Both the position numbers and the translations under genes were made by a program. This document shows positions 42,186 through 42,841 of a stretch of DNA of 64,000 bases, piece by piece. The stretch's first letter is position 1. Each line of letters begins with the position of its first letter. The stretch is from Escherichia coli (lineage in GTDB: Bacteria > Pseudomonadota > Gammaproteobacteria > Enterobacterales > Enterobacteriaceae): the NCBI RefSeq assembly GCF_003334405.1, contig NZ_QOWM01000007.1; one strand, 5' to 3'. The notes beneath the pieces were generated by a model, which worked only from the letters and a program-made list of their open reading frames with translations, searched no databases and had not been told where the DNA came from.

Positions 42186-42215
42186 CTTGAAAAGTTCATT
42201 TCCAGACCCATTTTT
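42186..42215 (+). promoter_or_regulatory. sigma32 heat-shock promoter of ibpA
   Basis: -35 cttgaaa (42186..42192), 14-nt spacer, -10 cccattttt (42207..42215); about 100-nt leader before ATG. Confidence 0.7.
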
Positions 42216-42316
42216 ACATCGTAGCCGATGAGGACGCGCCTGATGGGTGTTCTGGCTACCTGACCTGTCCATTGTGGAAGGTCTTACATTCTCGCTGATT
42301 TCAGGAGCTATTGATT

Positions 42317-42730
42317 ATGCGTAACTTTGATTTATCCCCGCTTTACCGTTCTGCTATTGGATTTGACCGTTTGTTTAACCACTTAGAAAACAACCAGAGC
42401 CAGAGTAATGGCGGCTACCCTCCGTATAACGTTGAACTGGTAGACGAAAACCATTACCGCATTGCTATCGCTGTGGCTGGTTTTGCTGAGAGCGAACTGG
42501 AAATTACCGCCCAGGATAATCTGCTGGTGGTGAAAGGTGCTCACGCCGACGAACAAAAAGAGCGCACCTATCTGTACCAGGGCATCGCTGAACGCAACTT
42601 TGAACGCAAATTCCAGTTAGCTGAGAACATTCATGTTCGTGGTGCTAACCTGGTAAATGGTTTGCTGTATATCGATCTCGAACGCGTGATTCCGGAAGCG
42701 AAAAAACCGCGCCGTATCGAAATCAACTAA
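42317..42730 (+). CDS. ibpA: Small heat-shock protein IbpA
   Basis: ATG at 42317 ([19 protein letters not shown]...) gives 137 aa; alpha-crystallin domain. Confidence 0.96.
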
Positions 42731-42841
42731 TTCCCTAAGGCCGCCTGGCGCGGCCTGACATCTCCATGCTCGCCGTCAGGGAGCATATGCGAATCTTCGG
42801 ATTTGCAGGTACTTACTCGCTTCTTAGAAGGAGAAATGACT

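Follow-up and report, generated by a model that had tools for sequence, protein, structure and literature searches.

Layered control of the Escherichia coli ibpAB small heat-shock operon and a conserved RNA hairpin between its two genes

The ibpAB locus

The DNA that was analysed (the window, i.e. 64,000 nucleotides of contig NZ_QOWM01000007.1 from the E. coli assembly GCF_003334405.1) holds between positions 42100 and 43340 a segment that many E. coli chromosomes contain with 100% identity and that was found in 5418 of 5426 complete genomes. Over the 3 kb around the locus there are 0 differences between the window and K-12 MG1655, and coordinates are converted by taking MG1655 position = 3909739 - window position. 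The order of features in the RefSeq annotation is yidQ (minus strand), a ROSE feature, ibpA, ibpB and yidE. This annotation, together with the match to E. coli chromosomes, confirms the assignment of the gene pair to ibpA and ibpB that had been made in an earlier, sequence-only reading of the window. The genes and the end of the operon are located as follows:

42317..42730, plus strand: coding sequence of ibpA, 137 aa (ORF list; RefSeq)
42842..43270, plus strand: coding sequence of ibpB, 142 aa (ORF list; RefSeq)
43286..43313, plus strand: intrinsic terminator of the operon, GCCCCGCCAttcTGGTGGGGC + T7, with its stem at 43286-43306 (terminator scan)

In terms of overall identity, it is virtually certain that the region is the one that controls ibpAB, the small heat-shock operon of E. 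coli. The features that the sequence-only reading had flagged are all annotated or published already and belong to the textbook biology of E. coli, and the region matters little as a discovery. The operon is nevertheless a model for layered heat-shock control, in which sigma32, RNA thermometers, mRNA processing and autoregulation by IbpA come together.

The two coding sequences are separated by a spacer of 111 nt. An in-frame ATG is present at 42836-42838, 6 nt 5' of the annotated ibpB start and 2 nt from the Shine-Dalgarno sequence (SD); it is missing from most orthologues, and the annotated start at 42842 therefore stands. The terminator behind ibpB was the sole terminator-like site that the terminator scan reported between 41900 and 43500. 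Weak Rfam matches to sRNAs on this same terminator were rejected as chance matches to hairpins.

A sigma32 promoter and a ROSE-type leader in front of ibpA

Two elements precede the ibpA coding sequence:

42186..42215, plus strand: sigma32 (RpoH) promoter, with -35 CTTGAAA at 42186-42192 and -10 aCCCATTT(TT) at 42206-42215
42221..42316, plus strand: 5'UTR of ibpA, 96 nt, a ROSE-type RNA thermometer (Rfam ROSE_2; RefSeq ROSE feature; folds)

The -35 element CTTGAAA (42186-42192) and the element CCCATTTTT (42207-42215), at a spacing of 14 nt, are present in the sequence as had been claimed. The sigma32 consensus reportedly consists of a -35 CTTGAA(A) and a -10 CCCCATNT with some 13-15 nt between them, an account said to go back to Cowing 1985 and Nonaka 2006. 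Read in the register CTTGAAA-N14-CCCCATNT the site carries 2 mismatches, and with 0.46 such matches expected in 64 kb this is not significant on its own. A better register is CTTGAAA-N13-aCCCATTT (42186-42213), which deviates from the consensus at 1 of 14 specified bases and is the sole match in the 64-kb window, against a chance expectation of 0.02 and a match in 2 of 100 shuffles.

To this statistical argument we can add a comparative one. From other Enterobacteriaceae 80 loci were taken, and 77 distinct upstream regions were aligned. The -35 CTTGAAA is invariant or near-invariant in the alignment (with columns C20-T21-T22-G23-A24-A26 invariant) and the -10 CCCATTTT is near-invariant (with columns A44, T46 and T47 invariant), while the promoter spacer between the two varies freely. 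Conserved -35 and -10 elements around a variable spacer are what one would expect to see where a sigma32 promoter is functional, and the heat-shock reading of the site is thus supported both by a statistically unusual consensus match and by phylogenetic footprinting. In the accessible text of two preprints ibpAB is indeed placed in the sigma32 regulon (bioRxiv 10.1101/2020.04.20.050740; bioRxiv 10.1101/2022.10.13.511849).

The ibpA 5'UTR is given as 96 nt in the part of a review that could be consulted (PMC6096418), which, counted back from the ATG at 42317, puts the start of transcription near 42221. The earlier estimate of a leader of about 100 nt, with room for an RNA thermometer, was right on both counts: the leader is a Rfam ROSE_2 element, annotated as such in RefSeq, and the model (RF01832) matches 42251-42323 over its full length (1-73) with 100.4 bits (gathering score 65, E 2.4e-23). 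The leader folds into three hairpins, i.e. SL1 (approximately 42222-42258), which is stable at -15.8 kcal/mol at 37 °C, SL2 (42262-42283) and SL3 (42291-42307), which has a dG37 of -4.6 kcal/mol. Within SL3 the SD AGGAG (42303-42307) is paired with CUC-G-CU, such that a bulged G is left, and this pairing fits the anti-SD U(U/C)GCU of ROSE elements. The stems of SL1, SL2 and SL3 are all conserved in the 77 sequences, and the CTCGCTGATTTCAGGAG of the SD hairpin is near-invariant among them. Stable 5' hairpins followed by a weak SD hairpin agree with the published description in terms of stable and unstable elements, as far as that description is accessible.

Folding of the two leaders at 30 and 42 °C had been put forward as a check on the thermometers. 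SD-occluding hairpins are predicted in both leaders (that of ibpB is described below), but neither melts sharply. According to the nearest-neighbour model the fraction of unpaired ibpA SD in the full leader rises only slightly between these temperatures (0.28 and 0.35, respectively), the isolated ibpA SD hairpin goes through no clear transition between 20 and 60 °C, and the ibpB SD is some 85-92% paired between 30 and 42 °C. As a consequence, thermometer behaviour rests on published experiments and not on these folds; the absence of sharp melting in silico is here regarded as a limit of the energy model and not as a refutation. RNA thermometers in both 5'UTRs are reported in the accessible portions of the literature (bioRxiv 10.1101/2020.04.20.050740, citing Gaubig et al. 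2011; PMC10410725).

Two modules in the spacer between ibpA and ibpB

The consensus structure of the spacer, obtained with RNAalifold from 43 spacers of comparable architecture, consists of four hairpins:

42738..42756, plus strand: HP1, GC-rich RNA hairpin without U-tract, 7 nt after the ibpA stop (fold; 75 orthologues)
42766..42786, plus strand: HP2, AUGCUC-G-CC GUCA GG-GAGCAU (RNAalifold, pair counts)
42788..42807, plus strand: HP3 (RNAalifold, pair counts)
42816..42833, plus strand: HP4, SD-masking hairpin of ibpB (folds, conservation)

Over the 43 spacers 98.4% of the cells pair, versus 44-53% when the partners are slid, and double-changed cells number 78 versus 22.8 in shuffles. The elements all exist, and each of them is conserved as an RNA structure of the sense strand.

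The sequence-only reading had noted a hairpin between the genes that lacks a T-tract. Such a hairpin exists, although its coordinates (42738-42756) are 1-3 nt off the 42740-42758 that had been claimed. HP1 has the form A-GGCCGC / cuggc / GCGGCC-U, i.e. 7 bp of which 6 are G-C, and its dG37 of -13.9 kcal/mol was equalled in 4 of 200 shuffles; in silico the hairpin remains stable when the temperature is raised as far as 60 °C. On its 3' side follows GACATCTCC / GACAUCUCC, in which there is no T-tract, and a T-run after the stem was found in 0 of 75 orthologues.

These 75 distinct orthologous sequences were aligned for the comparison of HP1. Pairing is kept in 96.2% of the cells, versus 37-48% with the partners slid, and compensatory changes (G-C to A-U, C-G to G-C) occur in 4 of the 7 pairs, whereas the loop is variable in both sequence and length. 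At one pair 31 of the sequences have U-G, which on the opposite strand would be an A-C mismatch. Judged by this pattern of substitution, HP1 is a selected RNA structure of the sense strand, and, lacking a U-tract, it does not qualify as an intrinsic terminator.

Among the genomes sampled, only that of Klebsiella indica (L027:1732-1760) lacks the GC hairpin; an AT-rich hairpin, AGGGTAtttACCCT, is found there instead, likewise without T-tract. The idea that HP1 is a repeated element was discarded, as it occurs once in the window, and a match of the CRISPR-DR28 model to it (14.5 bits versus 35) was put down to chance similarity to a hairpin. In addition, alternative pairings of 6-7 nt (42707-42713 with 42747-42753, and 42754-42759 with 42775-42780) could compete with HP1 and HP2.

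The remaining three hairpins form the leader of ibpB. The inner stem of HP2, with its core GCC-NNNN-GGG, is invariant and its outer stem covaries; in a sub-threshold match the hairpin corresponds to stem I of ROSE in Rfam. In the case of HP3 the structure is kept but the sequence is not, and compensatory changes were seen in 4 of the 4 pairs counted. HP4 pairs CUC-G-CUUC with GAAG-GAG, which includes the SD (42827-42833), leaves a bulged G in the ROSE style and thereby fits the anti-SD expected of such elements, with fold energies of -5.1 to -5.7 kcal/mol. Its stem is invariant in the 43 sequences except for one C-to-U change by which a U-G pair is kept (7 of 43), and only the loop varies.

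When the spacer was searched alone against Rfam, the three best matches were ROSE, ROSE_3 and ROSE_2 with 19.3, 18.5 and 15.2 bits (gathering scores 45, 43 and 65, respectively), and the matches to the ROSE family cover HP2-HP4 and not HP1. With scores far below the gathering thresholds the ibpB leader is not a member of ROSE by the Rfam criterion, despite its hallmark anti-SD. The ibpB leader is an element that works like ROSE, and it is preceded by HP1 as an additional module.

Pairwise alignment of the ibpA leader (42254-42272) and the spacer (42750-42768) gives a common CCUGAC-NNN-UCCAU after the first stable hairpin, and the GCC-NNNN-GGG hairpin core is likewise present in both. In this comparison of two sequences the common motifs may be the trace of a leader that was duplicated together with its gene. 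A homology search with the IbpB protein returned matches only in Escherichia, Salmonella and Citrobacter and did not extend the range of lineages compared.

Variation of the spacer in relatives

The spacer of Citrobacter sp. Awk 4 (L067:1840-1978) measures 237 nt because some 130 nt have been inserted between HP3 and HP4, and HP1, HP2 and HP4 are intact in it. The inserted sequence is a dispersed repeat, of which E. coli genomes contain a median of 6 copies, located in unannotated places. We take it to resemble an ERIC/IRU element. Insertions are frequent in the stretch from HP3 to HP4, which forms a hot spot (L036, L058 and the Enterobacter/Lelliottia/Leclercia group, e.g. L039:1865-2000): Enterobacter-like genomes have an extra hairpin, CTGCGCACAAAATTAAACTGTGCC, at this place, and Trabulsiella and Siccibacter have 50-60 extra bases.

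RNA 3' ends and processing of the ibpAB transcript

The sequence-only reading had suggested processing or partial termination at the hairpin. The first of these is in line with the literature, as the accessible text of a preprint states that the bicistronic transcript is processed to monocistronic ibpA and ibpB (bioRxiv 10.1101/2022.10.13.511849, apparently citing Gaubig 2011). A demonstration that HP1 itself directs the processing was not found in the accessible literature, in which Gaubig et al. 2011 is represented via citing papers, and the Salmonella TIER-seq supplements hold no entries for ibpA or ibpB.

The second, termination, fits neither the missing U-tract nor the mapped 3' ends. The Term-seq data of Adams et al. 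2021 (PMC7815308, supplementary files 1 and 3) cover unstressed MG1655 in LB (two densities) and in M63, and in these three non-stress conditions they contain no RNA 3' end at HP1, i.e. none between MG1655 positions 3866900 and 3866999; partial termination is thus not supported. The same data weaken, without excluding, the idea that the processed ibpA mRNA ends at HP1.

Two strong orphan 3' ends are present elsewhere in the region (PMC7815308). One is located at 3867477, i.e. window position 42262, 4 nt after SL1, with some 52,000 reads, and falls in a region that the authors flagged as Rho-dependent. The other, at 3866898 (window position 42841), lies one base before the ibpB AUG and has some 76,000 and some 27,000 reads in two conditions. 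Their positions suggest that the ends at 42262 and 42841 belong to stable leader-derived fragments or to decay intermediates. In addition, a Rho termination region peaks at 43302 (MG1655 3866437), within the intrinsic terminator of ibpB, and reads downstream of it rise from 114 to 518 upon treatment with bicyclomycin (PMC7815308), from which it follows that some read-through toward yidE is normally stopped by Rho.

With respect to the products of the two genes, the accessible parts of the sources describe binding of IbpA to the leaders of both genes, whose translation it represses with the help of RNase-mediated decay (bioRxiv 10.1101/2020.04.20.050740; PMC10410725), and they state that IbpA is 3-10-fold more abundant than IbpB (PMC10410725).

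A layered scheme and the possible role of HP1

We are confident of a layered scheme in which a sigma32 promoter is combined with RNA thermometers for both genes, of the ROSE type for ibpA and ROSE-like for ibpB, and with feedback by IbpA. The sigma32 dependence, the thermometer function, the processing of the bicistronic mRNA and the repression by IbpA are taken from the literature. Transcription would start near 42221 from the sigma32 promoter, and the ibpA leader would then fold into two stable 5' hairpins followed by a weak SD hairpin, with the anti-SD UCGCU and its bulged G, that is opened by heat. The IbpA protein would act on the leader as a feedback repressor. The spacer would contribute two modules, namely HP1 and the three-hairpin, ROSE-like leader HP2-HP4, the last hairpin of which masks the ibpB SD. 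An endonucleolytic cut in the leader downstream would separate the two messages, after which HP1 could shield the ibpA segment as a barrier to 3'->5' exonucleases, and this protection could contribute to the reported excess of IbpA over IbpB. Taken as a whole, including the mechanism proposed, this account very probably gives the best explanation of the region.

The role ascribed to HP1 is a more tentative part of it. In line with a stabiliser hairpin, HP1 is a stable intercistronic stem-loop whose structure is selected on the sense-strand RNA, and it is probably an intercistronic stability or processing element. The specific role as a barrier to 3' exonucleases is the one we favour, though we would put this at somewhat below an even chance. 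In spite of its conservation, HP1 may still lack a function in the literature. Its selection as an RNA structure across the Enterobacteriaceae, outside the ROSE-like module, is of modest added value, and this selection, combined with 3' ends that are located elsewhere than a terminator model predicts, could guide an experiment on the IbpA:IbpB ratio.

Two readings go further. In one of them the IbpA:IbpB ratio would be determined by HP1 through segmental stability of the mRNA, and in the other the RNAs that end at 42262 and 42841 would be decoys for IbpA. These readings are a long shot. If the second were true, stable leader-derived RNAs with IbpA-binding stem-loops could buffer free IbpA in trans and thereby tune the repression of ibpA, ibpB and rpoH.

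Alternative explanations for HP1

Two alternatives to the 3' barrier are about equally improbable. According to the first, HP1 would be the 5'-terminal protective hairpin of a processed ibpB mRNA, which is released by a cut within UAAUUCCCUA, the stretch that separates HP1 from the stop codon, and on which the hairpin blocks 5'-end-dependent RNase E. Processing to a monocistronic ibpB mRNA has been reported, HP1 is stable at all temperatures and is located at the 5' edge of the ibpB leader, and a cut upstream of HP1 is compatible with the absence of a Term-seq 3' end at the hairpin. Such a cut, however, leaves the ibpA mRNA without a 3' hairpin, which fits poorly with the excess of IbpA, and on balance we regard this explanation as unlikely.

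According to the second, HP1 would be a folding insulator that stops pairing between the ibpA coding sequence and the ibpB leader, so that the thermometer folds alike with or without translation of ibpA. HP1 is located outside the ROSE-like module, and partners for unwanted pairing do exist in E. coli: CCGCGCC in ibpA (42707-42713) can pair with GGCGCGG in the loop and 3' arm of HP1 (42747-42753), and CCUGAC in the 3' flank of HP1 (42754-42759) is complementary to GUCAGG (42775-42780), the conserved loop of HP2. The competing pairings nevertheless make use of the variable HP1 loop and are not obviously conserved, and no specific testable prediction follows from the sequence. An insulating role is in our view an improbable one.

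A third explanation involves a motif inside ibpA that would provide ibpB with a promoter of its own, in which case HP1 would be part of the 5'UTR of a primary transcript and not of a processed one:

42651..42666, plus strand: sigma54-like motif TGGTAAATGGTTTGCT inside ibpA, a published and disputed sigma54 promoter of ibpB

Measured against the sigma54 consensus TGGCAC-N5-TTGCW with its GG-N10-GC core, TGGTAAATGGTTTGCT deviates at 2 positions, with the GG/GC core intact. It is among the known promoters listed by Zhao et al. (PMC2831329), at -185..-168 of ibpB, and was positive in ChIP under overexpression of sigma54. Genome-scale ChIP-seq, on the other hand, detected only background signal, and the site was called misannotated (Bonocora et al., PMC4591121). 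Since Leu-Val and Leu-Leu codons of ibpA dictate the core bases, conservation of these bases says nothing; most orthologues, moreover, have CTGCT and not TTGCT. When up to 3 mismatches were allowed, a loose scan of the window gave 309 matches versus 335 expected, i.e. matches at chance frequency. A sigma54 promoter for ibpB is on these grounds distinctly unlikely, more so than the two roles discussed before.

Least probable of all is that HP1 acts as a partial terminator or attenuator, past which only a fraction of the polymerases would proceed into ibpB, since the GC-rich 7-bp stem-loop at the end of a gene and the IbpA excess that speak for it are set against a U-tract that is absent from E. 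coli and the 75 orthologous sequences, a terminator scan that does not report HP1, and Term-seq data that in three conditions show no end at HP1, whereas abundant ends are located in the leader of ibpA and 85 nt downstream of the hairpin.

The exonuclease barrier is the reading of HP1 that we prefer.

Comparison with known systems

RNA elements that resemble those of the ibpAB operon are found in several other systems. The ibpA thermometers of Pseudomonas mask the SD by the same principle as that of E. coli ibpA and consist of fewer hairpins. The thermometer of Yersinia yscW-lcrF is of the fourU type. The REP elements of malE-malF are said, in an account that goes by Newbury et al. 1987, to be intercistronic stabiliser hairpins.

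With regard to stabilisation, HP1 differs from the malE-malF REP elements in being a single short hairpin with one occurrence in the window and no 3' end mapped at its base. It resembles them in that a stable stem-loop without U-tract is located between two genes of an operon of which the upstream product is the more common.

With regard to the thermometers, the ibpA leader is the same element as the published ROSE-like thermometer of E. coli ibpA (ROSE_2, RF01832; Waldminghaus et al. 2009), from which it shows no difference. The ROSE-like ibpA thermometers of Pseudomonas, which are 'short' according to the title of the report (PMC3669281), belong to the same gene family. Since most gamma-proteobacteria have a single small heat-shock protein (IbpA) and no ibpB, as stated in the accessible text of bioRxiv 10.1101/2020.04.20.050740, an intercistronic module is not expected in Pseudomonas. 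A closer parallel for the position of the ibpB leader is provided by yscW-lcrF, where, according to the part of the review that was available (PMC6096418), a thermometer in the spacer of a two-gene operon likewise controls only the downstream gene; unlike that thermometer, the ibpB leader is ROSE-like and has an extra stable hairpin in front.

The system closest to the present one is the same locus, as described by Gaubig, Waldminghaus & Narberhaus 2011 (Microbiology 157:66), whose study, as it is represented in the sources at hand, covers the sigma32 transcription, the mRNA processing and a second thermometer before ibpB. To that work, as it is cited elsewhere, the present analysis adds comparative evidence for HP1 and for the four-hairpin architecture of the spacer.
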